Source of the DNA: Minisyncoccia bacterium
GTDB lineage: Bacteria > Patescibacteriota > Minisyncoccia > Phycocordibacterales > UBA9973
Assembly (NCBI GenBank): GCA_039809245.1
Contig: JBDHUP010000002.1
Location: 11,188 to 75,187, forward strand
Length of the DNA stretch: 64,000 nucleotides
Direction: 5' to 3'
In this document: positions 24,101 through 50,533 of the stretch, piece by piece
How positions within the stretch are numbered: the stretch's first letter is position 1
Layout: each line of letters begins with the position of its first letter
Position numbers and translations under genes: made by a program
Notes under the pieces: model-generated
What the model was told of the DNA's origin: nothing
What the model saw: only the letters and a program-made list of their open reading frames with translations
Databases searched by the model: none

Positions 24101-24162
24101 ACTTTAATTTTAGCATTTTTCAAATTTGACTCCACACACTGTTTTTTAGAGAGTTTGAGTGT

Positions 24163-26899: not shown

Positions 26900-26959
26900 T
26901 TCCTAGCTGTTGGTAACTAAATTACCCTTATTTTTCAATGTAAGCTAGGATACAGACCT

Positions 26960-28702: not shown

Positions 28703-28708
28703 TACAAT

Positions 28709-30292
28709 ATGACTATTACTGATTACAAAACAGAAAGAGAGAATGATGTAAGTAAAATTAAGTCTTCTGTCCACCCTAAAAAGGTTGTCGTTGCAGGGCC
28801 TGGGACAGGTAAGAGTTTTTTGTTTCAAGAACTTATCAAAGAGAAGAAAAAGTCTGGTAAGACTGATTTTGTTGCTATTACATTCATAGGTAAATTAGGT
28901 GATGCACTTGCTGATGACCTCTGTGGTTTAGCTGAAACTATGACTATGCATGGTTTTGCGAGAAGATTTGTTCTAGAAAAGTGTAAGGGCTGGATTTATT
29001 ACCCTAGAATGTATGACATCATTAAAGCTGATTTAAAAAGCGAAGGTATTGATGATTTTGAAATTGGAGACGACAATTACAAAAAGAAAACTCTTTTTTA
29101 TAAAGCTGTTGGTGATGAAGATGTTGTTCATTACGCAATCCAGATATGTGAAAAGGACAAATCAAAGATTCCTACTCACGATTTAATATTAATTGATGAG
29201 TTCCAGGACTTTAATGAAAAAGAATCGCAATTTGTTGATTTGCTTGCTGAGAAAAATGAGATTGTGATAGTTGGCGATGACGATCAGGCACTCTATGAAT
29301 TCAAAGGCTCATCTCCAGCTTATATTAGAAGCAAACACCACACAAGCAATACAGATTTTGAAAGTCATACGTTGAGATTTTGTTCGAGATGTACTGATGT
29401 TGTGATTAAATATTTTCATGCTCTCGTGGAGAAATTTAACCTTAAAGATTCTACAAAAAATCGGATTGAAAAGGATTATATATGTTACGTGCCTGACAAA
29501 GAAAAAGATTCTAAAGCGAACCCACAAATACATCTTATAAAAAATTGCCCTAGTGGAATGATTGCTTTTAAGATAAGAGCTGAGTTAGAAAAACTTGTTA
29601 CCGAGCAAAAAATTAAAGACATTCTCATTATTGGTGAAGGAAGATCTTGCAAAGCTATCCTTGAATCGATAGCAAAGCAACTGAAACACTACGGATTTAA
29701 AAATGTAGATTACGGTAAATCTAATGGCTATCTAGATACTAAGCAGAATATTGTTGATGCTTATAAGTTCTTAGCGAATGATCCTGAGTCAGTTTTGGGT
29801 TGGCGAATACTTGATAATCCAACAGATCAAACTGAAAAAGAAAGGCATCTAAAAAATTCTAAGACCTTAAAAGTAATTATTTCAGGTAAATCTGCTGAGA
29901 TTAAAAAACTCAAAGATACTGCTATTGTCGAACTAGAAAAGACTATAGAAAATAATCACGTTGATGATCCCATCCTCAAGAGATCTGTTTTTATTGATGA
30001 ATTACGAGACCGAAACATTGTTCTCTCAAGACCCCTTGGAAACTTAAATATTACAGTATGCAATATTCTGAATTCGAAAGGACTTGGTGCTGATGTTGTA
30101 TTTTTGGTCGGATTTGACGATGGTAAATTTCCTGCAAAAAACATACCGACTGACAGCGAAATTTATCAAATGCTTGTTGCTATTACAAGATCGAAGAAGC
30201 GAATGTATCTCGTTAATACAACTGGAAAGAAAACATCAGTCTTTCTCGATTGCTTGGATGCCAGTGACTTAAGCACAAAAGAAATTAAGTAA
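28709..30292 (+). CDS. Compact UvrD/Rep-like SF1 helicase embedded between hsdM and hsdS
   Basis: Walker A AGPGTGKS, motif II LILIDEFQDFN, motif III VGDDDQALYEF, C-terminal motifs SKGLGADVVFLVG and VAITRSKKRMYL; 6 bp after hsdM, 1 bp before hsdS. Confidence 0.75.
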   Translation: MTITDYKTERENDVSKIKSSVHPKKVVVAGPGTGKSFLFQELIKEKKKSGKTDFVAITFIGKLGDALADDLCGLAETMTMHGFARRFVLEKCKGWIYYPRMYDIIKADLKSEGIDDFEIGDDNYKKKTLFYKAVGDEDVVHYAIQICEKDKSKIPTHDLILIDEFQDFNEKESQFVDLLAEKNEIVIVGDDDQALYEFKGSSPAYIRSKHHTSNTDFESHTLRFCSRCTDVVIKYFHALVEKFNLKDSTKNRIEKDYICYVPDKEKDSKANPQIHLIKNCPSGMIAFKIRAELEKLVTEQKIKDILIIGEGRSCKAILESIAKQLKHYGFKNVDYGKSNGYLDTKQNIVDAYKFLANDPESVLGWRILDNPTDQTEKERHLKNSKTLKVIISGKSAEIKKLKDTAIVELEKTIENNHVDDPILKRSVFIDELRDRNIVLSRPLGNLNITVCNILNSKGLGADVVFLVGFDDGKFPAKNIPTDSEIYQMLVAITRSKKRMYLVNTTGKKTSVFLDCLDASDLSTKEIK

Positions 30293-30293
30293 T

Positions 30294-31418
30294 ATGAATA
30301 ATCCTCTTAAACAAAAGAATATTCCGAAAGGATGGGAATACGGTTCTCTTGGAGATTTTATTGTAGATATTAAAGATGGAGGAACTCCTTCTAGGCGTAA
30401 AGGTGAATATTTTGGTGGTGGTATACCATGGGTTGTCATCAAAGATATAAAATCTAGAATTTACTCTACAAACGAAACCCTTTCTAAATTAGGCATTGAA
30501 AATTCAAGTGCTAAGGTTTTTCCTGCAGGCACAGTTATTTTATCATTTGGTGCAACGATTGGAGAAGTTGGTATCGCAGAAGTTGATTTAGCTACAAAGC
30601 AAGGTATTGCCGGAGTTTTGCCAGATGTTTCAAAAATTACAACTGAATATTTATATTTTTTATTACAATCTCAAAAAAAGTTACTCAATCAAATGGCTAC
30701 AGGAAGTACTATTAAGGAAGTACGTCCAAATATTATCAAGAAAATTAATATACTTGTCCCCCCAATAAAAGAGCAGAAGAAAATTGCTGATATTTTGTTA
30801 TCTGTTGATGAAGAGATTCAAAAGGTTGAAGAGATAATTTCCGCGACTGAAAAATTAAAAAAAGGGCTGATGTCAGGATTATTTACTAAAGGAATTGGTA
30901 ATAATAAATTTCAAAAAACAAGAATCGGAGATATATTAACTTTAGAATACGGCAAACCATTAAAAGCATCAGATAGAGTCTCTGGAGATATACCAGTTTT
31001 TGGTTCAAACGGTATAGTTGGATATCATGATACAAGCTTAGTAAAAGGACCTGGTGTTATTGTAGGAAGAAAAGGAGGGGCTGGAGAAGTGATGTTTTCA
31101 GAAGTAGATTTTTATCCCATAGATACAGCTTATTTTGTAAAAACGGATTTTAATAAAAAATTTATTTATTATTTATTAGTAAATACAAACTTAAAAAAGC
31201 GTTCCGGAGGTAGTGCTGTTCCTGGATTAAATAGAAATGACGCATATTCTAAAATAGTGATTCTTCCAAAAAAAGAAGGTCAAGAGATAATTGTAAACAT
31301 TTTATCTTCTGTAGATAGAAAAATTATTACTTGTCAGAAATTAAAAACAAAATTATTAGAACTTAAAAAGGGATTAGTGTCGGATCTCCTGAGTGGAAGT
31401 AAAAGAGTAAAAATATGA
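30294..31418 (+). CDS. hsdS: Type I R-M specificity subunit HsdS (two target-recognition domains)
   Basis: Duplicated TRDs with conserved repeats (PPIKEQKKIADIL / PKKEGQEIIVNIL). Confidence 0.85.
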   Translation: MNNPLKQKNIPKGWEYGSLGDFIVDIKDGGTPSRRKGEYFGGGIPWVVIKDIKSRIYSTNETLSKLGIENSSAKVFPAGTVILSFGATIGEVGIAEVDLATKQGIAGVLPDVSKITTEYLYFLLQSQKKLLNQMATGSTIKEVRPNIIKKINILVPPIKEQKKIADILLSVDEEIQKVEEIISATEKLKKGLMSGLFTKGIGNNKFQKTRIGDILTLEYGKPLKASDRVSGDIPVFGSNGIVGYHDTSLVKGPGVIVGRKGGAGEVMFSEVDFYPIDTAYFVKTDFNKKFIYYLLVNTNLKKRSGGSAVPGLNRNDAYSKIVILPKKEGQEIIVNILSSVDRKIITCQKLKTKLLELKKGLVSDLLSGSKRVKI

Positions 31419-32473
31419 AATTACTATTTTTAGATTCAAATATATTCCTTAATTTCTATGATTTTCATGATGAAGATCTAACTCAACTTGCGAAGTTGGT
31501 GGATGTAATAAAGGCTAAAGAAATAAAGCTCTTTTTGACTACTCAAGTTTGTGAGGAAATTAAGAAAAACAGAGAGGCTCGATTAAAGGTTGCGTATGAG
31601 AAAATCGTAGATTCAAAAGTAACTTTAGCTATTCCTCCTTTTTGTAAACACTACGATGAGTATTCTGATATTAAGCGTGCTCAAAATATTCTTGATCAAT
31701 TAAAATCTGAACTAAGTAAGAAACTTTGGGAAGATATACAAAATCACACACTACAAGCTGATAAAATTATTAACGACCTTATCAATGAGAGTAGTATAAT
31801 TGATTCAGATAAATATTTGCCTCAGGCAATACAAAGGCATCAATTAGGTAGACCGCCTGGAAAGAAAGATAGGAGTTATGGCGACGAGATTAACTGGGAG
31901 GCAATTTTAGCTGAAGTGTCTGGTGAGGGTGAATTTATACTTCTTAGTAAAGATGGCGACTATGCTCATGCAATAGATGATCAGTCGCTAAAAGACTATC
32001 TTGTTGATGAATGGAAGAAGAGTCATCCAGATAATGAAATATTTTTCTACAAAAGCTTAACTAAATTTTTCACTGAGCATGATATCAAGATCGAGTTGCG
32101 TATAGAACAGGAAAAAGATGAACTTGTTCGAGACTTGATTAACAGTCACAACTTCTTAAATACACACATTATAGTAAGTAGTCTCTCTAAATACAGTAGT
32201 TTTACAGATGATCAGGTAAGAGGTATAGCAAATGCTTTGAGTGAAAATAGTCAGGTTAGATGGATTATTGATGATGCCGATGTAAAGGAATTTTATAGAG
32301 ACAATCTTCTTCCTAGGTTAGACTTATTTGATTCCGAGACACAGCAAAGTATTAGAGGCTTAATTCAAGGTGAAGAAGTTGCGGATTTGTCTGCCGAATT
32401 GAATAATCTTGAAGAAAAACTTAAAGAAGAAAAAGATGAAGAAAGTGATAATGAAGAAGATATTCCATTTTAA
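31415..32473 (+). CDS. PIN-like domain protein (predicted nuclease) with acidic C-terminal tail, embedded between hsdS and hsdR
   Basis: Four spaced acidic positions in a PIN-like pattern (LFLDSNIF, TTQVCEEI, GDEINWEAIL, LLSKDGDY); ATGA overlap with hsdS, 9 bp before hsdR. Confidence 0.45.
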   Translation: MKLLFLDSNIFLNFYDFHDEDLTQLAKLVDVIKAKEIKLFLTTQVCEEIKKNREARLKVAYEKIVDSKVTLAIPPFCKHYDEYSDIKRAQNILDQLKSELSKKLWEDIQNHTLQADKIINDLINESSIIDSDKYLPQAIQRHQLGRPPGKKDRSYGDEINWEAILAEVSGEGEFILLSKDGDYAHAIDDQSLKDYLVDEWKKSHPDNEIFFYKSLTKFFTEHDIKIELRIEQEKDELVRDLINSHNFLNTHIIVSSLSKYSSFTDDQVRGIANALSENSQVRWIIDDADVKEFYRDNLLPRLDLFDSETQQSIRGLIQGEEVADLSAELNNLEEKLKEEKDEESDNEEDIPF

Positions 32474-32482
32474 CTAAACAAT

Positions 32483-35395
32483 ATGAAATTCAACGAATTA
32501 TATACAATAGAAAAACACGTTATAAAATTCATCCAAGAAAAACTTGGCTATGAGTTTATTCCTGCTGAAGAGTTTTCAAAACTTCGTGCTTTCGAAAACG
32601 AGGTTATTATCACTTCACACCTTATTGAATCTGTTCAAAAGATAAATGAGGTTGATGAAACTTTGGCTCAAAGTGTCGTTCGTGAGATCAAGAAACTTGA
32701 TACCAATGAAGCATTTTTACTTACGATGCGAAATGGTGTAAATCTTAAAGATCCTGCAACTGGCAAGAATCGTGATTTTCAGATTGTTGATTTTGATAAT
32801 GCCGACAACAACCGATTTGTTGTTACAAGTCAGTTCTACTTCGAGGGCACCACAGAAAACATTCGCCCTGACGTGATGATTTTCTTGAACGGTCTACCTA
32901 TCTCTGATATTGAAGCAAAAAGCCCCACCGCTTCTAGCTCGGTAAGCTTTGAGAATGCTATTGATCAGATCAAGCGATACGAAAAAGTTGCATCAAAACT
33001 ATTTCTCCCTAACTGCTTTAATATTGCAACAGACGGACTAAAAACAGTGTATGGAGCAACTTATTCTCCAAAGCAATACTTTTTGACTTGGCGAGAAGAT
33101 CCACATAGTGAATCAAAGATGTTTGAAGATGAGCTTGATTCAACACTCTACTTCCTATTTGAAAAAGAAAGACTCCTTGATGTCTTGAAGAACTTTATTG
33201 TATTTGAAAAGAAGAAAGACGGATCTATTAAAAAGATAGCTCGATATCAGCAACTGTACGCTTCTAATAAAATTGTAGAGAGAGTTAAGGATGGTGACCA
33301 TAAAAAAGGTCTTATTTGGCATACTCAAGGATCTGGAAAGACTCTGACCATGTTTTTTACTGCTTGGAAGCTTCGATATGCACCTGAGCTTAAAAACCCA
33401 AAGGTATTTATTCTCATCGACCGTATTGATCTTGATGATCAAGTATTTGAAGAGTTTGAAGCTTGGGGTGGTCAGAACCTCATTCGAGTTGAGTCTCGTA
33501 AGGATCTCGAAAAGAAAATCAAAGGTGCAGACCGAGGTATCTTTATTTCAACTATCCAGAAATTTACTGAACTAGAAGAAATTGAAAGTATTGATGGAAA
33601 TGTCATCGTTCTTTCTGATGAAGCCCACCGAGATAACGAGGGAGTATCTGCTATCAAGATGCGTAATGCATTTAAAGATGCGTTCTTCTTTGGGTTCACT
33701 GGAACTCCTATTGATAAACTAACTCTTAATACACACCGCAACTTTGGTGAAGATGGAGAGCGATATCTTGATTATTATTCTATTCAACAAGCTATTGATG
33801 ATGGTGCGACGTTGCCTGTTACCTATGAAGCTCGACTTTCTAAATTCTTTATTGACGAGGAAACCGTAGACAAAAAGTTCAATGAACTAACTACTGATCT
33901 GAGCAAAGAACAGAAAGAACTCCTTACAAAGAGGTACGGAAAGAAGGAAGCTCTGGTAAAGCTAGAGAAACGAATGGAAGCAGTCATTCAGGATATTGTT
34001 GAACATTACAAGCTGTATGTCCTTCCAAACGGGTTTAAAGCACAGATTGTGTGTTATGACCGAGAAGCAACAGCAAAGTATAAAGACTTGCTTGATAAGC
34101 TTGTGCCATCAGAATGGTCAGAAGTTGTATATTCTCCCGCTGATCCAAATAGTGATAGCGACGACCTAAAAAAATACAACACGAACAAACAAAAGCGAGA
34201 GAAGATTATTGAACAATTCAAAGACCCAACTCATCCTCTAAAGTTTCTACTTGTCTGTGACATGCTTTTGACTGGTTTTGATGCTCCAGTTGAACAGGTA
34301 ATGTACCTTGATAAGCCACTCCGAGACCATAATCTTCTACAAGCTATTGCTCGTACAAACCGTGTCTACCCAAACAAAGGGTGTGGAAAGATTATTGACT
34401 ACTATGGTGTGACTAAGAACCTCTATGATGCTCTCAATTTTGATGAGAGTGTGGTTGATAGTGCGATGATCAATATTGATAAGTTGAAAGAAGACTTCAA
34501 AAAGGTGCTTGATGAAGTCATGAGTCTTTTCGAGGGGGTTAATATTGAAGATCCTTCAATTGAAAACCTTCGTCGATGTCTCAAGATATTTATCGACAAT
34601 CAAAGCAAACAACAATTCTTCAAAGACAAATATGGTCGTCTAAAGATGTTGTTTGAGATACTTTCTCCCGATCCATTCCTTATTGAGTATCTACGCAAAT
34701 TTGAGTGGATTACCAGTTTCTATCTTGCTTTTAGTAAAGAATTTCAACCAGAAGGAGTTGATGCGTTTTCTCTTGCTGAATACGGAGAGAAAATCAAAAA
34801 CCTTATCCAAGACAAGATTGATTATGAGGGAATCACTAAGAATTTCCGTGAGCTATCGGTACACGATCTCGCTACACTTAACAAACTAGACAAACTTCCT
34901 GATGAAGATAAGGCTCTTAATCTTGAAAAGATGCTTAAACGTGAGATCTCTATCAACATAGACACACACCCAGCATTTAAAGGATTTGGTGAGCGACTTT
35001 CCTCAATTAGACAAGAGTTTGAGAAACATCAGATTGATCTTGCTGAACGTATCAAGCGTTACTACGAACTTCTGAACGATATCAAGACCAAAACTGAAGA
35101 AGCAAAGGAACTTGGTTATTCTCTCCATGAATACGGACTCTTTGTAATTTCTGAGGAATTCATTAGCGAATCAGATCAAGCGGTTATAAAAGAATTCATC
35201 AAGGAAATGTCATCTCGATTGGAGGATGTTCTTGATGAGGGATGGCAAAACTCATCAAAGCGTGAGGAGTTTATAAAAGAAGCCAAGAGAACATTGCAGG
35301 AGTTAATTCTTAAAGACTACAAGAACAAGATTCAGATTTCTGACTTCCAAAAATATCTCAATCGTTTGATTGATGTAGTTATTAAAAAATTCTAA
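32483..35395 (+). CDS. hsdR: Type I R-M restriction subunit HsdR (SF2 translocase/endonuclease)
   Basis: 970 aa; Walker A HTQGSGKTLT, DEAH-box VLSDEAHR, helicase motif VI QAIARTNR. Confidence 0.9.
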   Translation: MKFNELYTIEKHVIKFIQEKLGYEFIPAEEFSKLRAFENEVIITSHLIESVQKINEVDETLAQSVVREIKKLDTNEAFLLTMRNGVNLKDPATGKNRDFQIVDFDNADNNRFVVTSQFYFEGTTENIRPDVMIFLNGLPISDIEAKSPTASSSVSFENAIDQIKRYEKVASKLFLPNCFNIATDGLKTVYGATYSPKQYFLTWREDPHSESKMFEDELDSTLYFLFEKERLLDVLKNFIVFEKKKDGSIKKIARYQQLYASNKIVERVKDGDHKKGLIWHTQGSGKTLTMFFTAWKLRYAPELKNPKVFILIDRIDLDDQVFEEFEAWGGQNLIRVESRKDLEKKIKGADRGIFISTIQKFTELEEIESIDGNVIVLSDEAHRDNEGVSAIKMRNAFKDAFFFGFTGTPIDKLTLNTHRNFGEDGERYLDYYSIQQAIDDGATLPVTYEARLSKFFIDEETVDKKFNELTTDLSKEQKELLTKRYGKKEALVKLEKRMEAVIQDIVEHYKLYVLPNGFKAQIVCYDREATAKYKDLLDKLVPSEWSEVVYSPADPNSDSDDLKKYNTNKQKREKIIEQFKDPTHPLKFLLVCDMLLTGFDAPVEQVMYLDKPLRDHNLLQAIARTNRVYPNKGCGKIIDYYGVTKNLYDALNFDESVVDSAMINIDKLKEDFKKVLDEVMSLFEGVNIEDPSIENLRRCLKIFIDNQSKQQFFKDKYGRLKMLFEILSPDPFLIEYLRKFEWITSFYLAFSKEFQPEGVDAFSLAEYGEKIKNLIQDKIDYEGITKNFRELSVHDLATLNKLDKLPDEDKALNLEKMLKREISINIDTHPAFKGFGERLSSIRQEFEKHQIDLAERIKRYYELLNDIKTKTEEAKELGYSLHEYGLFVISEEFISESDQAVIKEFIKEMSSRLEDVLDEGWQNSSKREEFIKEAKRTLQELILKDYKNKIQISDFQKYLNRLIDVVIKKF

Positions 35396-35397
35396 CT

Positions 35398-35967
35398 ATG
35401 AAAAAGCATATAGAACTTCACAAAAGAAAAGTTCCATATACGCTCAAAGTAAGTAAGCGAGCAAAAAGACTCCGCCTCGCAATTTATTGTGATGGTGCTT
35501 TTGTTGTGACCACTCCTCGAAATGTTGAGGTTTCAGTTATTGAGAAATTCATCATACAAAGATCTCAGTGGGTTATCGATAAGTTAGATTACTTCAGCCA
35601 ATTCTCTGATGTATTCAAAAAGAAGAATACTCAAGCAGAATATTTGAAGTACAAAGAAGAGGCTCTATCTTTAGCCGAGAAAAAGGTTAAGAAATTCAAT
35701 AAGATTTACAAATTCTCTTACAACAAGATTAATATCAAAAATCAAAAGACTCGCTGGGGTAGCTGTTCTAAAAAAGGTAACCTTAATTTCAACTATAAAA
35801 TTGCGTTGTTGCCTGAACGTCTTGCTGAGTACATAGTCGTACACGAACTCTGCCACCTTGGACAATTTAATCACTCTCAGAAGTTTTGGAATTTGGTAGC
35901 CAAGGCTATACCTGACTATCTAGAGATCAAGGAGGAGTTAAAAAGAAGTGGTTTAAGATTTCATTAA
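35398..35967 (+). CDS. DUF45/COG1451 (YgjP-like) zinc metallohydrolase, a known companion of Type I R-M operons
   Basis: HELCHL...H metal-binding motif near the C-terminus; 2 bp after hsdR. Confidence 0.65.
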   Translation: MKKHIELHKRKVPYTLKVSKRAKRLRLAIYCDGAFVVTTPRNVEVSVIEKFIIQRSQWVIDKLDYFSQFSDVFKKKNTQAEYLKYKEEALSLAEKKVKKFNKIYKFSYNKINIKNQKTRWGSCSKKGNLNFNYKIALLPERLAEYIVVHELCHLGQFNHSQKFWNLVAKAIPDYLEIKEELKRSGLRFH

Positions 35968-35968
35968 T

Positions 35969-36214
35969 ATGGATGACTGGAGCTTCAACATACCCAAAAA
36001 GATTTTGAGAGTATTATTGATTGGTGCAGTCATACTTGCTGTTCTCTACGGGGTTTTTACTGGTGACTCAAAGAAAGGTGCTGATTTTTATATGAAGGAG
36101 GTTAAATTTATTATGACTCCAATAATAAATAAAATGCAAAATCGTATGGAAAAGATATTCGATAGAGCACTTAATAAAACTCAAGAGAACCAGAGTGAGA
36201 ATGTCGAAAACTAA
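35969..36214 (+). CDS. Small single-TM protein
   Basis: 81 aa ORF, 1 bp after the preceding gene. Confidence 0.3.
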   Translation: MDDWSFNIPKKILRVLLIGAVILAVLYGVFTGDSKKGADFYMKEVKFIMTPIINKMQNRMEKIFDRALNKTQENQSENVEN

Positions 36215-37701
36215 CCGAACAATATTCCACCTGAAACTGGATTATTCTCAATAATTTTAAGAACCACGATGGAAAAAGCGTCAGCTAAGTCATCGTGTTT
36301 TTCTTTTCCAAATCCAAGAAGTTGCTCGATTAATTCTTCACAACCGCTTTCAGGAAATAAAATGCGTCCGTCCTTTAACAATGGAGTCGTGAGTCGTAAT
36401 CGTGCACCTTTGTCGTTTCTTCCTGTTGGCACACCCTCAATGTCATACTTTTGACTCTCAAAGAATTGGATCAATGCTTTTTGATATCCAACATCTTCCA
36501 CAAAAAGTTTTACCCGATTGTGTTTCATTTTCTCGGTTGCCACCAACGCTTTGATAAATTCTGCGTGTACAGGAAATGAACTCCTTTTGTTATAAGGATG
36601 CTTTTGAATATAGATTTTCATATTTTTCCCTGTGCCGTATACATATGCAACGACAATAGCGGTGCAGTCAGCTGAATCTTTTTCACTTACCGCCAAATCG
36701 ATACCTATACAGATACTTCTAAATCCATCGGCAGGCATTTTGTCATAGAATGTGATCCATTCAGGCAAGACAATCTGCTCGTCAGTCGCAATGATCTGAA
36801 GCATATACTCACGAAACCACGCAACATCATCCATAGTTTTTTCTCGCTCAGCTTCAACATCTTCTGGAGCAGGATACTTGCCGGGCCATAAAGGATTGCC
36901 CTTGGGATCAACAATAGGATATTCACGGTATACAGCCTTAATGCGACTCATTTCACCATTTTCGATTTTCTTTTGTAGTCGCTTCAGCACAGAGTCCTCA
37001 TGAAGTAAGTTACCCACAGCAATGATTCTCGTTTTCTTGGTTCCTGCAGGGATTACTTCACTTACAAGCCAGTTGAATGTTTTATCACGACCAACACGAG
37101 TTTTAACCGATTGGGTATCTTCAATGTCGTCTATGATAATAAGGTCGGGGCGATGTTGATCGTGTCTTACTCCACGGATGCTTTGCTCTACAGAGCTGAT
37201 CATAATCTTCACATTGAGTCTCTTGATAATGAGTGCCGTAGCATTACCGAGATTGTTCTTTTCTTCTTCAAAAGGTCCAAGGTCTTTTCGCAGAAGGTCA
37301 TTATTTAAAAGCTGACTTTTTATATTCAAAAGATACTGCCGTGCTTTTTGCTCAGTTTGACCACAAATAACAATAAGCTTTCTTTGCTGTATACCGAGGA
37401 TAGACCATAGGACATACGCTGTTGAAATGATGGTTGATTTTGCTAAACCACGGAATGCAACAAACACTGCAAGTTTAATGCGATCATCTTCAAGAATACG
37501 AAACATCTCCTCGTGAAAGGGTGCTGTCTCATACTCCATGTATTGGTGAAAATATATTGGGAAAAAGAATTCAAAACTATTTTGTACAGTATGTTTTCGT
37601 ACTGTTTGATCAATAAGAATTTTCTCAAAAATATCTTCACTATTCCTTTGTGTCTTTAAACTTGGCATGTTTGCGTAATGATGAAAGTTTGAGTGCGGCA
37701 C
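36211..37701 (-). CDS. Phage terminase large subunit (ATPase plus RNase-H-like nuclease)
   Basis: Walker A-like RGLAKST, Walker B DLIIIDD, C-terminal nuclease acidic residues (IGIDLAVSEKDSAD). Confidence 0.75.
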   Translation of the reverse strand: MPHSNFHHYANMPSLKTQRNSEDIFEKILIDQTVRKHTVQNSFEFFFPIYFHQYMEYETAPFHEEMFRILEDDRIKLAVFVAFRGLAKSTIISTAYVLWSILGIQQRKLIVICGQTEQKARQYLLNIKSQLLNNDLLRKDLGPFEEEKNNLGNATALIIKRLNVKIMISSVEQSIRGVRHDQHRPDLIIIDDIEDTQSVKTRVGRDKTFNWLVSEVIPAGTKKTRIIAVGNLLHEDSVLKRLQKKIENGEMSRIKAVYREYPIVDPKGNPLWPGKYPAPEDVEAEREKTMDDVAWFREYMLQIIATDEQIVLPEWITFYDKMPADGFRSICIGIDLAVSEKDSADCTAIVVAYVYGTGKNMKIYIQKHPYNKRSSFPVHAEFIKALVATEKMKHNRVKLFVEDVGYQKALIQFFESQKYDIEGVPTGRNDKGARLRLTTPLLKDGRILFPESGCEELIEQLLGFGKEKHDDLADAFSIVVLKIIENNPVSGGILFG

Positions 37702-38071
37702 GAATGAGCTTCTTTTCTTCTTTCGTCAGAGGCTTTTCTTTTGATTCAATACTTCCTGAAAGCTCAAGTTTGTTGCTGTACCGTGGATTGTGAGTTGAGA
37801 GATATAACCGAATAGCCTCTATCTTTCTCTCACTAATCAGAGCAAAGAGTTGGTTCTCAGCAACATCTGACATAAATTTTCTACCCTCGTTAAGAGACTC
37901 ATCAATTTGCCGTTCAAACTTCTTACTATTCGCAATCCATCGATAAACCGTAGCTCGTGATACACCAACTTTTTGACAGGAAGTTTCAAGAGTGGGCGTA
38001 CGCTTGAGCTGGTCGAGCAAAGCTTCTTTGATACGCGATTGCCTTTGTTGTATTGAATCTTTTCTACTCAT
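37640..38071 (-). CDS. Terminase small subunit-like HTH protein
   Basis: N-terminal HTH (VGVSRATVYRW) typical of phage TerS; immediately upstream of terL. Confidence 0.45.
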   Translation of the reverse strand: MSRKDSIQQRQSRIKEALLDQLKRTPTLETSCQKVGVSRATVYRWIANSKKFERQIDESLNEGRKFMSDVAENQLFALISERKIEAIRLYLSTHNPRYSNKLELSGSIESKEKPLTKEEKKLIRAALKLSSLRKHAKFKDTKE

Positions 38072-38826
38072 AGTTTTTCTGCTTTGACTCCAGACAGCTT
38101 TTCAAAACGATCAATGACTGTTTGACAGTATTCAATATCCATCTCGACTCCGATGCATATACGCTTTGTCTGCTCGCACGCAAGCAATGTTGTACCTGAA
38201 CCTAGAAACCCATCAAAAACCACATCTCCGATCCGTGTACTATTTAGTACAAGTCTACGAATAAGATCGATTGGCTTTGTCGATGGATGCATTTTGCTTT
38301 TATTTGGTTTTGGACAAACCAAGACACTCTTGTCTTTTGATTTCAAAAACTCATGTGTGCCATGCCACCCGTATGCGATTAGTTCATGTTGAGGTGCATA
38401 GTCCATACGACCGATGACTGCATGAGTTTTCACCCAAATGAGAAGTTGTCCAAATTTAAGACCTGCTTCGTGCATTCCTTCACGCAAAGCAAATACCATC
38501 TTGTCTGAATTAAAGATATAAAAGCTATTTTTACGATCAAGGTGGGGTCTAATAGCCTCAATCCAATCACGGGTGAAAGTTTTATATTCCAGATCGCTTT
38601 GTAAGTGATCGTTGAGTATTGGTTTATTCTTGGCGAGTGTCTGAAATCCTTCCTTACTTTCAGCTACGGCTACTCCATAGGGTGGGTCAGAGATTACTGC
38701 TTTGATTTTGTGTGTACTAACAAGCCTTGCGATCATATCCTTGTTTCGTGAATCTGCACACAAAAGCAAATGCTGTCCTAACCGAAATGCATCGCCGTAT
38801 TTAATTGAGCTTTGTGACTTTTTCAT
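38068..38826 (-). CDS. DNA methyltransferase (beta-class N6A/N4C, DPPY)
   Basis: Motif IV SDPPYG precedes motif I FLGSGTT. Confidence 0.8.
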   Translation of the reverse strand: MKKSQSSIKYGDAFRLGQHLLLCADSRNKDMIARLVSTHKIKAVISDPPYGVAVAESKEGFQTLAKNKPILNDHLQSDLEYKTFTRDWIEAIRPHLDRKNSFYIFNSDKMVFALREGMHEAGLKFGQLLIWVKTHAVIGRMDYAPQHELIAYGWHGTHEFLKSKDKSVLVCPKPNKSKMHPSTKPIDLIRRLVLNSTRIGDVVFDGFLGSGTTLLACEQTKRICIGVEMDIEYCQTVIDRFEKLSGVKAEKL

Positions 38827-40078
38827 TGGATATTTTCTTAAATCTATTAATAATTACCTGACAGAAAACTGGTTCAATTTCTGCAAGGAATGCTCGACGT
38901 TTAAGTGCTTCACAGGCAACCAGAATACTCCCTGATCCAGCCGTCAGATCAAGAATCGTATCACCAGGTTTACTACACCGTCTGATGCTTTTTTCGTATA
39001 AAGTCGGTGGCTTCATTGTCGGATGCTGATATTCAGAACTAGGCAGTCTTTTCGCAAGCCATATCTGGAACATGTCCGAAATATCATCAAGTAATCTATT
39101 ACCAGAGGATATTTCCTTATTCTGAAATTCAGTCAGATTCTTAACTTTGTCAGATAGATAGGGCTTACCTCGAACTCCATACATACAAAGCTCTACGGCA
39201 CGATTAAAAGCGATTTTAGGGGTTGGATTATGTTGAGACTTTGCCCACAAACAGAGTCGTTTGAAATCAATACCTACTGCTTTGAAAACATCCTGCATCA
39301 TCCCTAGGTATTTCTCATCCAGCCATGCAAAAGCATGGCAATCGTTCTTCGATACCCCCAGTGCGTTTTTTAAGATACTTGCAAGAAACTCCTTGTACTC
39401 AGCATCTGATTTTTTATCATTGATAGTTCCTCCGTAGTTCTGCTTGCCACCTAATCCCGCCGAGTAATCTACGCCTATGTTATATGGAAAATCTATATTG
39501 ATGAGATCTATCCGCTCAGAACCCACTAGCTCTGTAACGGTTTCTTTTTTAGTACTATCTCCACAAATTAAAACGTGACTCCCGAGTGAAAATTTATCAC
39601 CCAATTTAATGTCAGTTTTTTGAGCTTCCTTGAGTTCCTTTTCAAGATCAATATCATCGTCATCTACTTCGAGGTTGTCATCGAAAATATTAGAAAGATC
39701 GAATGAATCAAAACCCGCAGTAAGGAGTTCGTCGAGATCAAAATCTCGTGCAAGCTTTTCAAAATCCCAAGACGCACCGCTTCGATTTGAGGTGAGTAGG
39801 TAATCTTTAAATTCTTTTTCTGTAAGAGTTCTGTTTGGAACTCTTACCTCTATTTCTTCATCTTCTCGACCAAGAAGAGACAAGACCATCACTCGTTGGT
39901 TTCCAGCAACCAGAGTGCCGTCTGTGTTGATACACGGCAATTCTGCCAGATCAAATTTCTTGAGACTTCGCTTGAGTCCCTCAAGTTGTGTAGGCGAAAG
40001 TTTGCGAGGATTCTTTTCGTATCGAATCAAATCCTTCACTTTACGTTTCTCCGTATGCCAAACTAATTTTTTGCTCAT
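38801..40078 (-). CDS. ParB-like nuclease domain fused to a DNA methyltransferase
   Basis: N-terminal ParB/Srx-like segment (EKNPRKLSPTQLEGLKRSLKKF...AGNQR), C-terminal MTase motifs (DFPYN, LTAGSGS). Confidence 0.75.
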   Translation of the reverse strand: MSKKLVWHTEKRKVKDLIRYEKNPRKLSPTQLEGLKRSLKKFDLAELPCINTDGTLVAGNQRVMVLSLLGREDEEIEVRVPNRTLTEKEFKDYLLTSNRSGASWDFEKLARDFDLDELLTAGFDSFDLSNIFDDNLEVDDDDIDLEKELKEAQKTDIKLGDKFSLGSHVLICGDSTKKETVTELVGSERIDLINIDFPYNIGVDYSAGLGGKQNYGGTINDKKSDAEYKEFLASILKNALGVSKNDCHAFAWLDEKYLGMMQDVFKAVGIDFKRLCLWAKSQHNPTPKIAFNRAVELCMYGVRGKPYLSDKVKNLTEFQNKEISSGNRLLDDISDMFQIWLAKRLPSSEYQHPTMKPPTLYEKSIRRCSKPGDTILDLTAGSGSILVACEALKRRAFLAEIEPVFCQVIINRFKKISNEKVTKLN

Positions 40079-40171
40079 AGTTATATTGGTTAGCTAATAA
40101 TGTAGATACGTGTATATCTGTATTGAGCATAGACCTAAAGAAAACAGCTGTAATCTGTAACTTTAGAGGGT

Positions 40172-40206
40172 AAAAAAAGCAAAAAAGCCCACATTTATGG
40201 GCTTTT
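40172..40206 (-). terminator. Hairpin aaaagcccacatttatgggctttt plus T-run on the minus strand
   Basis: Seen in sequence. Confidence 0.55.
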
Positions 40207-40227
40207 AAGAAAACTTTTCCACTCCAC

Positions 40228-40845
40228 TTATTCGCCGAGCACTCTGTCGTCTATAAATTCAAGTCTAATGTCTGGGTTGAATGCATATCCTTTTCTTTTT
40301 CTATCAAAATCTCCTTTGATGAATTCGTCTCGATCAGTAAGTTTGAAATGTCCTACAACACGACGATTTATTTTTCTTATAGTAACTCTCAGCGACTCTG
40401 TGTTTTTATAAGTCCCTAAAATTTCAACTGCATCTTCAAGTGTTACGTTCTTTCGTTCATAGAATAATCTGATGATGGCTCGTTGATCAGGAGTGAAATC
40501 AAGAGGCTCTTTGGCATAATCTTTTCTCGTAAGAAACATCTCGCCGTCTTTATTGATGTGAACAACAAAATCAATCAGCTTTTTCATACGCATTTGATCG
40601 TATGGTCGCAGGTAGAGTAGCTCGCCAAGTTTCTGACCATTTCCTTTTTTAATATAGATAGTTTCTTTCAATTCAATCTTTCGGTATCCGCCTGTATAAA
40701 TGGTTTCAGTAAGTTCGACTTTTGAATTGCGATCAGAGACCATGTTCATTCTTCTAATATCCAAAAACTTACACGATTCCTCGTGTTCTTTATCTTTAAA
40801 AGGATATATGAATTCTGGCTTCTTCCGCTTCTTATTCATAGCCAT
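40228..40845 (-). CDS. Hypothetical protein with a sigma-70 region-4-like C-terminal HTH
   Basis: LTPDQRAIIRLFYERKNVTLEDAVEILG...RVTIRKINRRV resembles ECF sigma region 4. Confidence 0.3.
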   Translation of the reverse strand: MAMNKKRKKPEFIYPFKDKEHEESCKFLDIRRMNMVSDRNSKVELTETIYTGGYRKIELKETIYIKKGNGQKLGELLYLRPYDQMRMKKLIDFVVHINKDGEMFLTRKDYAKEPLDFTPDQRAIIRLFYERKNVTLEDAVEILGTYKNTESLRVTIRKINRRVVGHFKLTDRDEFIKGDFDRKRKGYAFNPDIRLEFIDDRVLGE

Positions 40846-40877
40846 ATTTTACCTTAAATAAGGGATATAATGTACGT

Positions 40878-41594
40878 ATGGGGACGATTCAAGAATGTAT
40901 CTTTTGTAAAAGCACAACCAACTCATTCAATAGTGTTGAGCATATTTTTCCTGAGTCGCTTGGTAACAAAGAGAAGATTTTAGATAAGGGATTCGTTTGT
41001 GATACTTGTAATAATGAAGTTCTCTCTGGGCTAGATGCTGAGCTTCTTGATTTTGAGGGGATCAAATTCATGAGAGTCATGAATGGAATTGAAAGTAAAT
41101 CTGGGAAAGTTCCTGTTGCTAATTTTCCGAATCTAAAAATAGAAAACCCTAACAAGGATCACATCAAAGTACATCTTCAAACCATGAAGCATGTACGAGA
41201 TCAAAGCGATACGGGTTTCAAACTAGATTTTCGTGGCACAAGAAAAATGGATACGAAACGATTAAAACTTCTTGCGAGGTCTTTGTATAAGATTGGATAT
41301 GAATTAGTGTGTCTTGATCACGGACGAGATTTTGTCCTGTCGCCACGGTTTGATGAGGTGCGAGATATCATCCTCGGTAAAAAGGACTTTAATGGTTACA
41401 TACTCATGGGGAGTAACGAAAAATCAGAAAATCCTAGAGTCAGTTATTATCCACTCAAAGACGACAAAGGTAGAGAGTTTATGGCTTTTGACTTTGTATA
41501 TCTATTCGTACGATTTATCTTCGATATGGAGCGAAGAGAGGCTTTGCTAGAAGCTGGTACAAAACTTGAGCGTATGACCGTCATGAAGTTTTAG
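40878..41594 (+). CDS. HNH-family endonuclease-like protein
   Basis: CxxC (CIFCK) ... EHIFPESLGN ... CDTCNN arrangement. Confidence 0.5.
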   Translation: MGTIQECIFCKSTTNSFNSVEHIFPESLGNKEKILDKGFVCDTCNNEVLSGLDAELLDFEGIKFMRVMNGIESKSGKVPVANFPNLKIENPNKDHIKVHLQTMKHVRDQSDTGFKLDFRGTRKMDTKRLKLLARSLYKIGYELVCLDHGRDFVLSPRFDEVRDIILGKKDFNGYILMGSNEKSENPRVSYYPLKDDKGREFMAFDFVYLFVRFIFDMERREALLEAGTKLERMTVMKF

Positions 41595-41761
41595 CCGTAA
41601 ATGAGACAATGCCAAGGAAGCCCTTTCTATGTCTCATTTGTCGCATTTACAGAAACTAGACCCCGACCCACAAACCTATTTTTTACCAACTAAAAAATGC
41701 TAGAATAGCCTTATAAGGCTTGGAGTGTGGGGTACCATACCCGAGTACACCGCAAATAAAG

Positions 41762-41786
41762 AAAACCCGAAAGGGTTTTTCTTTTT
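41762..41786 (+). terminator. Hairpin aaaacccgaaagggtttt plus T-run
   Basis: Seen in sequence. Confidence 0.45.
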
Positions 41787-41903
41787 GCGGGCGAGAAAGA
41801 GAACTGCTTCTCTTTCGTGTGAGATTCGAAAGACTTTTCTGTCATTTGGTTACAAATGTAGAAAAGTACCTGGCTACGTGGTAGCCGAAAAGTGTACTCA
41901 TGG

Positions 41904-41919
41904 TCTCACCGCCTCCGCA
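41904..41919 (+). repeat. attR: second copy of the 16-bp tRNA-Ser 3' end
   Basis: Exact match to 23414-23429. Confidence 0.65.
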
Positions 41920-41943
41920 AAAAAAGAGCGATTAATCGCTCTT
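41919..41943 (-). terminator. Hairpin agagcgattaatcgctct with A/T-run flanks; terminator of the VOC gene
   Basis: Seen in sequence. Confidence 0.5.
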
Positions 41944-41951
41944 TTTCTTTT

Positions 41952-46785: not shown

Positions 46786-47184
46786 TTATACAAAGTTAAT
46801 TAAGAAATTATACATACCCATCCCACATACACCTTGTAGAGGTGTATCTTTGTTTGGTATACCTATATCAATTTCTGTACTTCCTGTTTGAGGTAGGATT
46901 TTTTGAAAACCAACAGACCTTATTACTAGAGAAGCTGAGCAGTCATATATTCCTTTTGTTTTTACGATAAGCTTTGTTGGGATACCAGCTTTCGCAATTG
47001 AAAACTCTGGTGAATATCCACCACCTGCTGTTATGGTTATATACTGGACACCGTCTCTTATTTCTGAATTCTCTACTGGGGTATCTGCTGTACCATTTTG
47101 GGGACCTTTTAATCCTCCCCAGAAAATAATACCTATGCCGATGATTAACCCAAGAGTAATAATAACTAAAGTAGTTTTGTTCAT
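46786..47184 (-). CDS. Secreted cupredoxin-like protein (copper cluster)
   Basis: Signal anchor; C-terminal CGMGM Cys/Met-rich motif; position in the cop cluster. Confidence 0.4.
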   Translation of the reverse strand: MNKTTLVIITLGLIIGIGIIFWGGLKGPQNGTADTPVENSEIRDGVQYITITAGGGYSPEFSIAKAGIPTKLIVKTKGIYDCSASLVIRSVGFQKILPQTGSTEIDIGIPNKDTPLQGVCGMGMYNFLINFV

Positions 47185-47198
47185 AAAATAATTATAAT

Positions 47199-48206
47199 CT
47201 ATATATTAAACAATGGTCTAATAATACCAATTCCAGCAAGTCCTCCCAATAGGGAGAATATTCCAAGCCCAACAACAACCACTCCTGCGACTTTAAAGAA
47301 TAGTGGGGCAAATTTTGAATGCGCTAGTGATGCTGATCCAAATGAAAGTAAGGCAAGTACTGGGAAAGTCCCTAGAGCAAAGGCAAACATTATCAAAGCT
47401 CCAGTTAAAAATGACCCACTTGAAAGTGCTGCGATCTGCATAGATTGAGTAAAACCACATGGTAAGAAGAAAGTTCCAAATCCAATTAGAAGTGGTGTCA
47501 GAGTTTTATGTTCAATTTTCCTAAAAAATTTAAAAATTCCAGACGGTAGTGTGATTTTACTCTTGGCAAAAATCCCCATCAAATTGAGACCGAGTAGAAG
47601 CATAACAGTAGCTGCTATTAGTCCGAGTATTGCACCAAGAGTAAAGCTAATACCTATAGCACTCCCAAGCATCCCTAGTAATCCTCCAAGAATTGCAAAA
47701 CTTACAATTCTTCCTACATGGAATAATACAAGATTCTTTTTATCATCTATATTATCTTGTGATACTTTTGCAGACAAAGAAAGTATTAATCCCCCAACAA
47801 TTGCAAGACATGAGGAAACTGATGCTATAAGTCCGATAATAAAACTAGTAATAGGTGTGGTCTTACCGCCAATACCGAAATTCAGAAAACCTGACTTCTG
47901 TAAAAGGAAAAATAGTACCAAGAAAACAAGACCTAGTGGTATAGCTTTCCAAATGACATCATCCCCTTTCTTTTCTTGAGTTACCTTTTCTAATGAAAGG
48001 GAGTAGCCGTTTGGTTTTATTTTGCTTGTGAGTATCTCTGTTAATTCTTGAGGACTCACGTCACTATCAGTCTCTACTTCTACTGTTTCACTTTTTAAAT
48101 TTACTTGTGCATTTATGATCAAATCTTGCTCGTTTAAGATATCCTCAATCAAGATTTTGCATGACGCACAATGAGTACCCGACACATGGAATTTATATTT
48201 ATTCAT
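47199..48206 (-). CDS. Heavy-metal-associated (HMA) domain fused to a DsbD/CcdA-like 6-TM domain
   Basis: N-terminal GTHCASC metal-binding motif; TM region with paired cysteines. Confidence 0.6.
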   Translation of the reverse strand: MNKYKFHVSGTHCASCKILIEDILNEQDLIINAQVNLKSETVEVETDSDVSPQELTEILTSKIKPNGYSLSLEKVTQEKKGDDVIWKAIPLGLVFLVLFFLLQKSGFLNFGIGGKTTPITSFIIGLIASVSSCLAIVGGLILSLSAKVSQDNIDDKKNLVLFHVGRIVSFAILGGLLGMLGSAIGISFTLGAILGLIAATVMLLLGLNLMGIFAKSKITLPSGIFKFFRKIEHKTLTPLLIGFGTFFLPCGFTQSMQIAALSSGSFLTGALIMFAFALGTFPVLALLSFGSASLAHSKFAPLFFKVAGVVVVGLGIFSLLGGLAGIGIIRPLFNI

Positions 48207-48208
48207 AT

Positions 48209-50533
48209 TTATAATCTTTTAGTTTTAATCCTCAGTGAGTTCGACACTACTGAGACACTTGATAATGCCATTGCCATACCTGCAAATACAGGATTAAGTA
48301 ACCATCCAAAAATAGGATAGAATACTCCTGCTGCAAGTGGGATACCTATGATATTGTAAAAGAATGCCCAGAAAAGATTCTGCTTTATACCCGTCATTGT
48401 TATCTTTGAAAGCTTAATAGCTTTTGAGAGTTTAGAGATATCGCCACCGAGTAGTGTAATCCCTGCTGACTCTATCGCTACATCAGTTCCTGTACCCATA
48501 GCAATACCTACATCAGCTTGGGCAAGCGCTGGAGCATCATTAACCCCATCTCCAGCCATAGCCACAATCCTACCTTCCTTTTGTAGTTCTTTGATTTTCA
48601 TAAGCTTATCTTGAGGCAAGACATGAGCAACAACTTCATCTATCCCAACAAGAGAAGCCATATACTTTGCAGCCCTTTCATCATCTCCAGTGAGCATTAT
48701 TACTTTTATACCAAGCTTGTGTAGATTTACTATTGCTTGTTTTGATTCAGGCTTTATCTCATCGGCAATCATTACAAAACCTAGAACTTTATCTTTCGTA
48801 GAAAGTATAACAGGGGTCTTACCTTCTGATGTAAACTGCTCTATCTTTGACGTATCAAACTTAATGCTTAAATCTTTAACTAACTGAGCATTCCCAGCAT
48901 AGTATTCTGTATTTTTGATTACACCTGTAATACCTTTACCTTCAATATTATTAAAGAGAGCTACATCATTTATTGCGATATCCTTTTCTTTCGCATAGTT
49001 AGTTATCGCGTGAGCTATCGGATGCTCTGATTTACTTTCAAGCGAAGCTAGAAGTGATATGAGTTCATTATCTTTTAAGTCAGATAGATTTTCTATATTC
49101 ATGAGCGTTGGTTTACCTAGAGTTATTGTCCCTGTCTTGTCTACAATGACTGTATCTACTTTATGCAGCTTCTCGAGTGTGGCTGCATCTTTAATTAGAA
49201 TTCCTTCGCGAGCTCCTTTACCAACTCCAACGATAACTGCAGTCGGAGTTGCAAGTCCAAGTGCGCATGGACAAGCAATTACCAAAACCCCAACAAAAGA
49301 AACTAGTCCAAAAGATAGAGCTTGAGATAGTCCAAGTGGACCGATACCAAACGCAAGCCACGCTCCTAGAGTTAGAAATGCAATAACGATTACAATTGGA
49401 ACAAAGACACTTGAAATCCTATCAGCTAGTGCTTGTATTGGAGCCTTTGATCCTTGGGCTTCTTCTACCATTGTTATAATCTGCGCGAGCAGTGTCTCTG
49501 ACCCTACTTTTGTAGCCGAGAATATGAACGATCCTGTAGTGTTTATAGTTCCAGATACTACAGTATCACCTATTTTCTTTTCTACTGGCATTGGTTCACC
49601 AGTAACCATAGACTCATCAATAAATGAGGCACCCTTAGTAATCACTCCATCGACAGGAATTTTTGTTCCTGGTTTTACGACAATTAAATCTCCATGGACA
49701 ACTTCATTTATAGAAACTTCCACTTCCTTACCATTGCGTATGACCAGTGCTGTTTTAGCTTGAAGGGTTAGGAGCTTCTCTATCGCATCCCCCGTTTTCA
49801 CTTTTGAGCGAGCTTCTAGATATTTACCTAAAGCAATAAAAGTAATAACAACAATAGTCACATCGTAATATGTGTGATCTACATTTATAAAAGGTTTCAA
49901 GACATCTTCAAATGCGGTAACGGCGAAACTATATAAAAAAGCAGAGACAGTTCCTATTCCGATAAGTGTATCCATGTTCGCTTTACCATATCGAAGGAAA
50001 CGATAGAACCCCATAAGATACGGCCTACCAACTACGAATAACATATATGTCGCAAAAATTGGTAAGAGATGGTGAAAAAGTTCTTTCAATGTATAGCTCA
50101 TCATAGGAACAGCTTTGTATTGAGCTAAAATATCCCAAGTCATCACGAAAATACTGAAAATAGCTAGTGGAATAGCCGACAGGACTTTAGATTTCATATC
50201 TTTTATCTCTTCAAGCTTTTCTTTCTTTGATTGATTGAGGTCTAAGTGCTCGGCGTGTTCATTCTCGCTCATACCCATTTCTTTCGCACTCATATTATGA
50301 TTACTGTGATCCACAGGCTCGGGAACTACTAAACTATAACCAAGTGGTTCTAATTTCTTATTGAAAGACTCTGGATTAGTTTTAGTTCTATCAAAAGTTA
50401 TCTTGGCATTCTCAGTACCATTGTTCACAGATACCTCTTCTACCCCATCAATCTTCTTGACGGTTCTCTCGATAATGCTTGCACATGATGCGCAATGCAT
50501 TCCTTTTATTTTGTATATCTGTGGTTTGTTCAT
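48209..50533 (-). CDS. copA: Copper-translocating P1B-type ATPase
   Basis: HMA GMHCASC, CPC transmembrane motif, [15 protein letters not shown]. Confidence 0.9.

Follow-up and report, generated by a model that had tools for sequence, protein, structure and literature searches.

The classical families of phage satellites, the phage-inducible chromosomal islands (PICIs), P4 and PLE, carry a replication module. PICIs, including the SaPIs, are site-specific islands of 6-20 kb with a divergent regulatory region and accessory or defence cargo; they lack structural and lysis genes and encode a small terminase subunit, TerS, that could redirect packaging. These traits are shared by the subject of this study, an integrative element of 18,325 bp in a Minisyncoccia bacterium (Patescibacteriota; assembly GCA_039809245.1, contig JBDHUP010000002.1), located within the stretch of 64,000 nucleotides that was analysed as a whole and is hereafter called the window. 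The element encodes both TerS and the large terminase subunit, TerL, without a recognisable capsid gene. Capsid-forming PICIs (cfPICIs) are likewise satellites that encode TerS and TerL. They also encode capsid, portal, protease or scaffold proteins and head-tail connectors and borrow only tails, whereas no capsid, portal or connector gene was detected in our element, in which the longest unassigned open reading frame (ORF) is 205 aa. The mini-prophages phiRv1 and phiRv2 of Mycobacterium tuberculosis (~10 kb) resemble the element in being integrated by a large serine recombinase (LSR) and in carrying a terminase gene, but they also carry a capsid gene, a prohead protease and a primase, and their insertion target is a repeat element and not a tRNA gene. 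The element's TerL shares with those of Mu-like and other tailed phages (phrog_38/Terminase_6; T7 gp19, structure 4BIJ) a Walker A/B ATPase, an RNase H-like nuclease and a TerS gene immediately upstream, yet it is at most 29% identical to them (50,697 phage records), belongs to a family whose Walker A motif reads RGSAKS and is followed by cargo and an LSR gene, not a portal gene.

PICIs differ in having a tyrosine integrase, a primase/Rep replication module and TerS only (or Ppi/Cpm), with TerL supplied by the helper (PMC9618062; bioRxiv 10.1101/2020.12.28.424599), whereas the family described here has an LSR, its own TerL, one or two DNA methyltransferases (MTases) and no replication genes. 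Measured against a PICI, the element has the integrase (of the serine type) with its att sites, and packaging genes without structural genes; the replication module is missing. P4-like satellites and tycheposons share integration at tRNA genes and a conserved backbone with an exchangeable, defence-dominated cargo hot spot, but mostly use tyrosine integrases, carry replication genes and in no case encode TerL; for packaging they have nothing beyond TerS or a capsid protein (bioRxiv 10.1101/2020.12.28.424599). Marine satellites and tycheposons have been described with TerS or capsid genes only, never with TerL in the absence of a capsid gene (PMC9618062; bioRxiv 10.1101/2020.12.28.424599). No description of the present family was found in the literature searched, which is not proof of novelty, and this large element family of the candidate phyla radiation (CPR, Patescibacteria) is apparently undescribed. 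We assign a probability of about 0.45 to the reading that it is a satellite-like element which packages itself into foreign capsids, using its own complete terminase and methylases but no capsid of its own.

Results

The element encodes a complete terminase but no recognisable structural genes

A previous reading of the window from its letters and ORFs, hereafter the sequence-only reading, had recognised a TerS-like helix-turn-helix (HTH) protein and a TerL with ATPase and nuclease parts, and both were borne out by profile matches (Table 1), TerL also by invariant motifs. The GTG at 37701 is not the true start of TerL, which begins with the ATG at 37668; an exact look-up of the 496-aa form starting at the GTG returned nothing, and the recorded form is the 485-aa protein starting at the ATG. 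In an alignment of 27 sequences (the window and 26 homologues), K77/S78 of Walker A and D180/D181 of Walker B are invariant, in the contexts AFRG[S/L]AKST and LIIxDDIED. The Walker A of the family is RGSAKS, with Ala where Gly is usual before Lys; in the window, Leu replaces the Ser, and the motif profile-aligns with 'afrGigKS' of T7 gp19, which has Ile there. In the C-terminal part, PF17289 covers residues 332-477, and D324, E391, D459, D460 and D463 are invariant in the same 27 sequences. Judged from its sequence, TerL therefore appears to combine the N-terminal ASCE ATPase and the C-terminal RNase H-like nuclease of phage terminases. Two database copies called as 442 aa have intact N-termini. 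The TerS-like protein matches four PHROG terminase-small-subunit families at E<=1e-4 and seven packaging-class PHROG families at E<0.01. Some TerLs of the family are ~700-720 aa long (L054, L066; P0152, P0153, P0155 and others), with a C-terminal extension of ~200 aa, and one sub-clade (L094, L096, L097, L098, L108, L064) has two tandem TerL paralogues that are 52-57% identical to each other.

The terminase genes do not stand in a head-morphogenesis cluster. Our census covered 79 species-representative loci, mostly from Patescibacteria, and 44 IMG/VR contigs were analysed besides. Among 133 loci related at >=41% TerL identity, cargo or an LSR gene follows TerL in every one. Between the tRNA gene and position 41754, no ORF, unassigned ones included, matched a capsid, portal, tail or lysis family of Pfam or PHROGs, which agrees with the lack of capsid, portal and tail genes reported in the sequence-only reading; the same profiles revealed no capsid genes in the flanks (about 23.5-44.3 kb of the window searched). 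What remains without a family in the island are ORFs of 81, 189 and 205 aa and the C-terminal 180 aa of the HNH protein, none of which is long enough for a portal or an HK97 capsid protein. Across the 133 loci there is no recurrent capsid- or portal-like cluster within 10 kb and no conserved gene of portal or capsid size after TerL, and the accessory genes that recur in the family include no structural ones. We also considered a complete virus whose capsid is unrecognised and rejected it in view of minimal members of ~6 kb, which consist of a regulator, an MTase, TerS, TerL and an LSR only.

Such a gene set might also be what is left of a degraded prophage, the alternative named in the sequence-only reading. 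In that case a packaging end would have remained after deletion of the structural genes, with an unrelated restriction-modification (R-M) island inserted beside it. TerL precedes portal and head genes in real phages and is followed by cargo of the opposite strand here, and scar-like tRNA fragments adjoin the island, both of which would suit decay. However, in comparison with an 85%-identical relative (L089/L142, dS 0.6-1.7), dN/dS is 0.026 for TerL, 0.057 for TerS, 0.045 for the MTase, 0.025 for the ParB-MTase, 0.017 for the 205-aa gene, 0.051 for the HNH gene, 0.034 for LSR2 and 0.009 for LSR1; all backbone genes are under strong purifying selection. Reading frames and catalytic motifs are intact, and TerL has none of the inactivating lesions that the sequence-only reading had named as the sign of a remnant. 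About 80 species-level genomes and 44 viral-catalogue contigs, with TerL identities as low as 41%, share this truncated layout, none of the relatives has structural genes, and the element has exact ends that are shared between differing contexts, with an attP join to match. Because of this purifying selection, the intact TerL motifs, the exact mobile ends and the recurrent gene order, we reject the prophage remnant, which we regard as very improbable.

The layout recurs in a large family confined almost entirely to Patescibacteria

More than 3,000 TerL homologues were found. The best 120 are 65-93% identical, some of them on contigs of up to 1 Mb, and those that carry a name belong to Patescibacteria, Parcubacteria or Nomurabacteria. 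A scan of one genome per GTDB species gave at least 374 species genomes with a TerL relative, and the best 80 are almost all from the CPR; a search of 1.8 billion cluster representatives gave 420 TerL clusters at E<=1e-30. These results show a large family that is found almost only in genomes of Patescibacteria.

Genes of the related loci were called with a simple ORF caller and then clustered, and for this reason the TerS counts are minimum values. In 68 of 68 loci of the census, the gene directly upstream of TerS/TerL encodes an MTase; in 66 this MTase reaches at least 400 aa, the size of the ParB fusion, the ParB domain itself being confirmed in the window only, and 22 of the 68 have a second MTase. 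TerS is recognisable in at least 57 of 68. An LSR gene lies downstream of TerL in 47 of 58 loci, always on the TerL strand (47/47); it is immediately beside TerL in 15 of these 47, and in the others 1-10 genes lie between. The 44 IMG/VR contigs show the same layout (TerL identity 41-94%). The backbone of the family can thus be written as a regulator-like gene, the ParB-MTase with or without a second MTase, TerS, TerL, a cargo slot of 0-10 genes, and a co-oriented LSR.

The element has exact ends and has moved recently

Both junctions carry CCGCA, so the element was delimited at 23430-41754. Alignments of the window with L147-L150 (86-91% nucleotide identity, with an identical 201-aa regulator) end exactly at 41754, and these loci share the terminus ...GAGTACACCGCA (also written ...GGGTACYATACCCGAGTACACCGCA), which is followed by three unrelated flanks. 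The non-coding stretch of the P arm is kept in the distant members L013, L024 and L050 and ends at the same motif. On the tRNA side, homology to L158 spans tRNA-Ser and stops at the 5' end of the tRNA, with different genes beyond, and in L160 the same element end adjoins tRNA-Ser in yet another genomic context. The termini are identical in at least six contigs. A first boundary model had placed the ends at a 16-bp repeat of the tRNA 3' end (23414-23429 and 41904-41919), until the close relatives moved the end to 41754; an empty site matching that model was searched for and not found, and a second copy of the tRNA 3' end, sought in 24 related loci, was matched in L057 and L059 only.

Joining the two arms predicts an attP of the form ...ACCCGAGTACACCGC(A)TTGACA..., with the junction of ...GAGTACACCGCA to TTGACAACTTGG. 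A P-P' join of this type is present in four metagenome contigs (L161-L164), and in these the similarity continues into both arms. With 21 bases specified, the pattern was estimated to occur well under once by chance, the total size of the collection not being stated. In L024, a Nomurabacteria contig, two copies of the module stand in tandem, linked by an attP-type sequence. Two module copies on one contig are also seen in L132 and in L121/L125 (one IMG/VR contig). Joins of the attL, attR and attP types were thus all observed; the empty attB, predicted as ...CACCGCCTCCGCA joined to AATAAAGAAAACCCG, was not. The element is intact, integrated site-specifically, and has moved recently.

The P-arm non-coding end has a fold z-score of -5.2. 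Rfam returned only tRNAs on the whole window and no match for the non-coding arms, and since four sequences show little covariation, the P arm was taken as a protein-binding or att region and not as an RNA. Its 10-bp inverted repeat and the 16-bp motifs of the two arms are candidates for the sites at which TerS, LSR or a directionality factor binds. In an excised form, the two copies of CGACCCACAAACCTAT would flank the core. Outside the element, the old region downstream of the tRNA (41755-41951) is probably the scar of an earlier insertion, left by an earlier occupant of the same tRNA site.

Methyltransferases are invariably coupled to the terminase

The two MTases named in the sequence-only reading, one of them fused to a ParB-like domain, were both recovered with PF01555, and the ParB-like part of the fusion corresponds to residues 8-157 (phrog_620, E=7e-22). 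All six genes of that reading lie where it had placed them, although they are transcribed in the reverse of the order in which it listed them: the 205-aa protein, ParB-MTase, MTase, TerS and TerL, the last four being joined by overlapping stop and start codons. The HNH endonuclease-like protein was likewise recovered by profile. The label 'sigma-region-4-like', given to the 205-aa protein at the operon head, found no support, as this protein has no HMM family match. It has 24 known homologues in all and no significant Foldseek match; in its AlphaFold model (pLDDT 79.5), a beta domain at the N-terminus precedes three helices and a beta hairpin, a predicted fold that looks winged-helix-like by eye. 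In other family members the operon-head position is filled by unrelated small proteins. Of 68 relatives, 22 have a LexA-like repressor gene (LexA_DNA_bind and Peptidase_S24) no more than 6 kb upstream, mostly divergent and at the position of the HNH gene, and this divergent repressor suggests SOS induction.

The constant pairing of an MTase with TerS/TerL invites what we regard as the main rival explanation, namely that the terminase has been exapted. The LSR alone would then mobilise the island, and the operon would be a methylation-coupled nuclease-translocase acting in defence, packaging interference or addiction, with TerS as the DNA-recognition subunit, TerL as an ATP-driven nuclease and the MTases as self-protection. 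In addition to the pairing in all 68 loci, with overlapping reading frames, this would account for a module that always sits amid defence systems, for the tandem intact TerL paralogues of some members, for the family-specific Walker A variant RGSAKS, for the lack of a close TerL relative in any phage examined and for the absence of both capsid and replication genes. On the other hand, TerL and TerS match no PADLOC model, and the order ParB-MTase/MTase-TerS-TerL is typical of phage packaging modules, as the matches to phrog_498 and phrog_620 suggest. The module also belongs to the invariant backbone together with the integrase and not to the variable cargo, the LexA-type repressor and the Sie-like genes point to a life style like that of a temperate phage, and a nuclease made only upon induction would be a poor constitutive defence. 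We consider exaptation of this kind unlikely, although it deserves to be kept in view.

Integrases, tRNA targets and exchangeable cargo

The two LSRs are convergent paralogues, 56% identical by BLASTP, whose genes overlap by 20 bp. LSR1 is conserved in L142 and L157-L160. The two may work as a pair or use separate att sites, and the second LSR could own the pair of 16-bp motifs. With all domains present in both LSRs, a short core and reproducible ends, the locus has the make-up of an LSR element. No recognisable candidate for a recombination directionality factor was found among its ORFs, of which those of 81, 189 and 205 aa have no family; the 189-aa ORF matched nothing in Pfam, PHROG or PADLOC. 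Downstream of the LSR, family members have a tRNA gene (Gln, Glu, Ser or Lys) whose 3' end points towards the recombinase gene, sometimes at a distance of 105-220 bp. The nearest neighbour of an LSR has the same type of adjacent tRNA in 72% of cases (25 loci) compared with 29% by permutation, an association that kinship among the host genomes can inflate. Copies of LSR2 that are 96-98% identical occur on many metagenome contigs (P0300-P0313), while the best TerL match is 93-94%; as the LSR2 copies are more alike than the TerL matches, the integrase module seems to have a history of spread or recombination separate from that of the terminase module.

The cargo slot of the window is filled by a type I R-M operon in which HsdM, HsdS and HsdR are all present and a helicase and a PIN protein are embedded, so that the sequence-only reading of 'type I R-M with extras' as defence cargo holds by Pfam and PADLOC. 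Near-identical elements hold differing defence-type genes between hsdM/hsdS and hsdS/hsdR: SMODS/AGS_C, a HATPase_c protein and two small ORFs in L157, ThsB-TIR and two small ORFs in L160 and L089, and an AAA_15/21 ATPase in L159. The type I R-M operon is in this respect a second cargo holder, resembling the arrangement of PrrC within EcoprrI. Cargo in the family is mostly defence, with type I R-M, type IIG R-M with an HKD-SNF2 partner and type III R-M, and further a DRT-like reverse transcriptase, PDC-S11, a CBASS cyclase with a 2TM effector, a SAVED protein and Mrr; Sie-like superinfection-exclusion lipoproteins are found among the genes of relatives. The satellite-like island with defence cargo that the sequence-only reading had proposed is thus upheld in its anatomy, that is, in being mobile and in joining packaging genes with cargo while lacking structural genes; the replication module and the TerS-only packaging of PICIs do not fit. 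That reading had not recognised the module as one arm of a much larger conserved family, in whose cargo slot the type I R-M is placed.

A heavy-metal P-type ATPase cluster (the ATPase, an HMA-domain membrane protein and a small protein) lies at 46786-50533 in the window, 5 kb from the element. At ~70% nucleotide identity, the cluster is found directly after the LSR in three other genomes (L016, L017 and L071), and it may be further mobile cargo or belong to a shared island hot spot. The names of related records and the 70% nucleotide identity of this cluster to Paceibacterota contigs both point to the CPR.

Table 1. Positions of the element, its genes, end sequences and flank in the window
Feature	Position	Strand	Match or remark
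Integrative element	23430-41754		18,325 bp; inserted at 3' end of tRNA-Ser; intact
tRNA-Ser(tga), integration target	23341-23428 or 23429	+	ARAGORN, Rfam
Common core CCGCA	23425-23429 and 41750-41754		tRNA 3' end and far end; both element ends
P' arm, element end beside tRNA	23430-23530		TTGACAACTTGGTAGATAC...; 93% identical in L157 and L160
16-bp motif CGACCCACAAACCTAT	23476-23491 and 41664-41679		one copy per arm (P' arm and P arm)
Terminator-like hairpin	23498-23531		in P' arm
189-aa ORF	23531-24100	-	dispensable: in L158 and L159, absent from L160
LSR1, large serine recombinase	24163-25542	+	Resolvase, Recombinase, Zn_ribbon_recom domains
LSR2, large serine recombinase	25523-26899	-	same three domains; TerL strand; conserved integrase of the family
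Cargo slot	26960-36214	+	Pfam, PADLOC
HsdM with MerR-type HTH	26960-28702	+	N6_Mtase E=4e-108
UvrD/GajB-like helicase	28709-30292	+	
HsdS	30294-31418	+	Methylase_S E=1e-45
PIN_12 protein	31415-32473	+	
HsdR	32483-35395	+	HSDR_N and SWI2_SNF2
YgjP-like metallopeptidase	35398-35967	+	
81-aa ORF	35969-36214	+	
TerL	36211-37668	-	phrog_38 E=1e-80; Terminase_6C (PF17289) E=3e-7
TerS-like HTH protein	37640-38071	-	PF13022 E=9e-10; phrog_24579 (terminase small subunit) E=1e-10
N6/N4 DNA MTase	38068-38826	-	PF01555 (N6_N4_Mtase) E=3e-30; phrog_498
ParB-N and N6/N4 MTase fusion	38801-40078	-	PF01555 E=2e-25; phrog_498 E=6e-81
Terminator-like hairpin	40183-40206	-	between 205-aa gene and MTase-terminase operon
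205-aa ORF, putative regulator at operon head	40228-40845	-	probably 201 aa from ATG at 40833
HNH_5 protein	40878-41594	+	PF14279 E=9e-11; divergent from operon
P arm, conserved non-coding element end	41596-41754		terminus ...GGGTACCATACCCGAGTACACCGCA; core at 41750-41754
10-bp inverted repeat AAATGAGACA / TGTCTCATTT	41599-41608 and 41630-41639		in P arm
Old region downstream of tRNA	41755-41951		flank, outside element
Terminator	41761-41780		in flank
16-bp copy of tRNA-Ser 3' end	41904-41919		in flank
Terminator	41921-41946		in flank; ~90% similar to P'-arm terminator

The lack of replication genes and possible packaging from the integrated copy

No domain of a replication module (primase/helicase or Rep) was found in the ORFs of the element or in the backbone of the family. 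One way in which such an element could do without replication would be packaging in situ, similar to gene transfer agents or lateral transduction, which would start in the left end of the integrated element and run rightwards through cargo, LSR, tRNA and chromosome, with capsids supplied from elsewhere in the genome or by a phage; a replication module would not be needed. Mu-like phages package from integrated copies, and the cultured-phage TerLs closest to that of the element include one of a Mu-like phage, Mannheimia phage 3927AP2 (27% identity), where the genes after TerL encode portal, Mu-F, protease and capsid proteins. As transcription runs, the conserved non-coding motifs of the extreme left end come before everything else; they and the position of the cargo slot downstream of TerL would both suit such a start. 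However, an identity of 27% says little on mechanism, capsid genes are found neither in the island and its flanks (~23.5-44.3 kb) nor as a recurrent cluster within 10 kb of the 133 loci, and the precise ends, the three types of att join and the conserved integrase favour excision and integration as the normal route. Packaging in situ is therefore improbable in our estimate.

Discussion

Self-packaging into capsids made by a phage is, as we infer, the most economical reading of an intact mobile element with its own TerS and TerL. The integrated element would be silent, with SOS induction suggested by the LexA-like repressor of relatives, whose place is taken by the HNH_5 protein in the window. 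Upon induction, the small operon-head protein would turn on the MTase-terminase operon, and LSR, together with a directionality factor, would excise the element at the CCGCA core. The MTases would methylate the element DNA as an anti-restriction measure, while TerS would bind a site in the element, for which the inverted repeat and the 16-bp motifs of the att arms are candidates; TerL would then cut the DNA and pump it into procapsids of a co-resident phage. In the next cell, LSR would integrate the element at the tRNA gene and the cargo would protect the new host.

Several observations weigh against self-packaging. As no replication module is present, the filling of a headful or the supply of concatemers is left unexplained. 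TerL would have to dock on the portal of a helper, yet the best match in the phage records stays below 30% identity and no phage with a related TerL was found. The invariable coupling of an MTase to the terminase is as compatible with a methylation-linked nuclease as with anti-restriction, and tandem TerL paralogues, both with intact ATPase and nuclease motifs, are predicted by no packaging model. As for the excised form, a terminal-overlap test revealed no circular contigs, the attP pattern has no match in IMG/VR, and the P-P' join of L164 adjoins a truncated LSR, so that joins of this type can be tandem or decayed arrays and are no proof of free circles. Our confidence in self-packaging is below one half because evidence of encapsidation, a replication module and a related phage TerL are lacking and because of the tandem TerLs.

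The element is an integrative, satellite-like one, and there is a real chance that the function of its terminase is new in kind. In that case the captured terminase and methylases would do another job, either as a pac-initiated transduction platform for the CPR or as a methylation-gated nuclease motor in defence or addiction; we judge this somewhat unlikely as a whole, though a serious contender. A transduction platform of this kind would load any compatible capsid with the island, its defence cargo and adjoining chromosomal DNA.

The ultra-small Patescibacteria represent much of bacterial diversity; their genomes are tiny and mostly without CRISPR, and to our knowledge little is known about how they exchange genes and resist phages. 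Copies of the integrase up to 98% identical are spread across many metagenome contigs, and close homologues (73-92%) are named from several CPR candidate phyla. Given its presence in hundreds of species genomes, its near-identical integrases and its defence cargo, the element is a plausible main vehicle by which defence systems spread in the CPR. The mapped att sites and compact LSRs could also serve as integration tools. Once the role of a full terminase in the absence of a capsid is understood, the outcome would be either a new kind of phage satellite or a packaging motor put to a new use, and if the terminase has indeed been captured for another job, the family would represent a class of mobile element that is new, widespread in Patescibacteria and specific to them.

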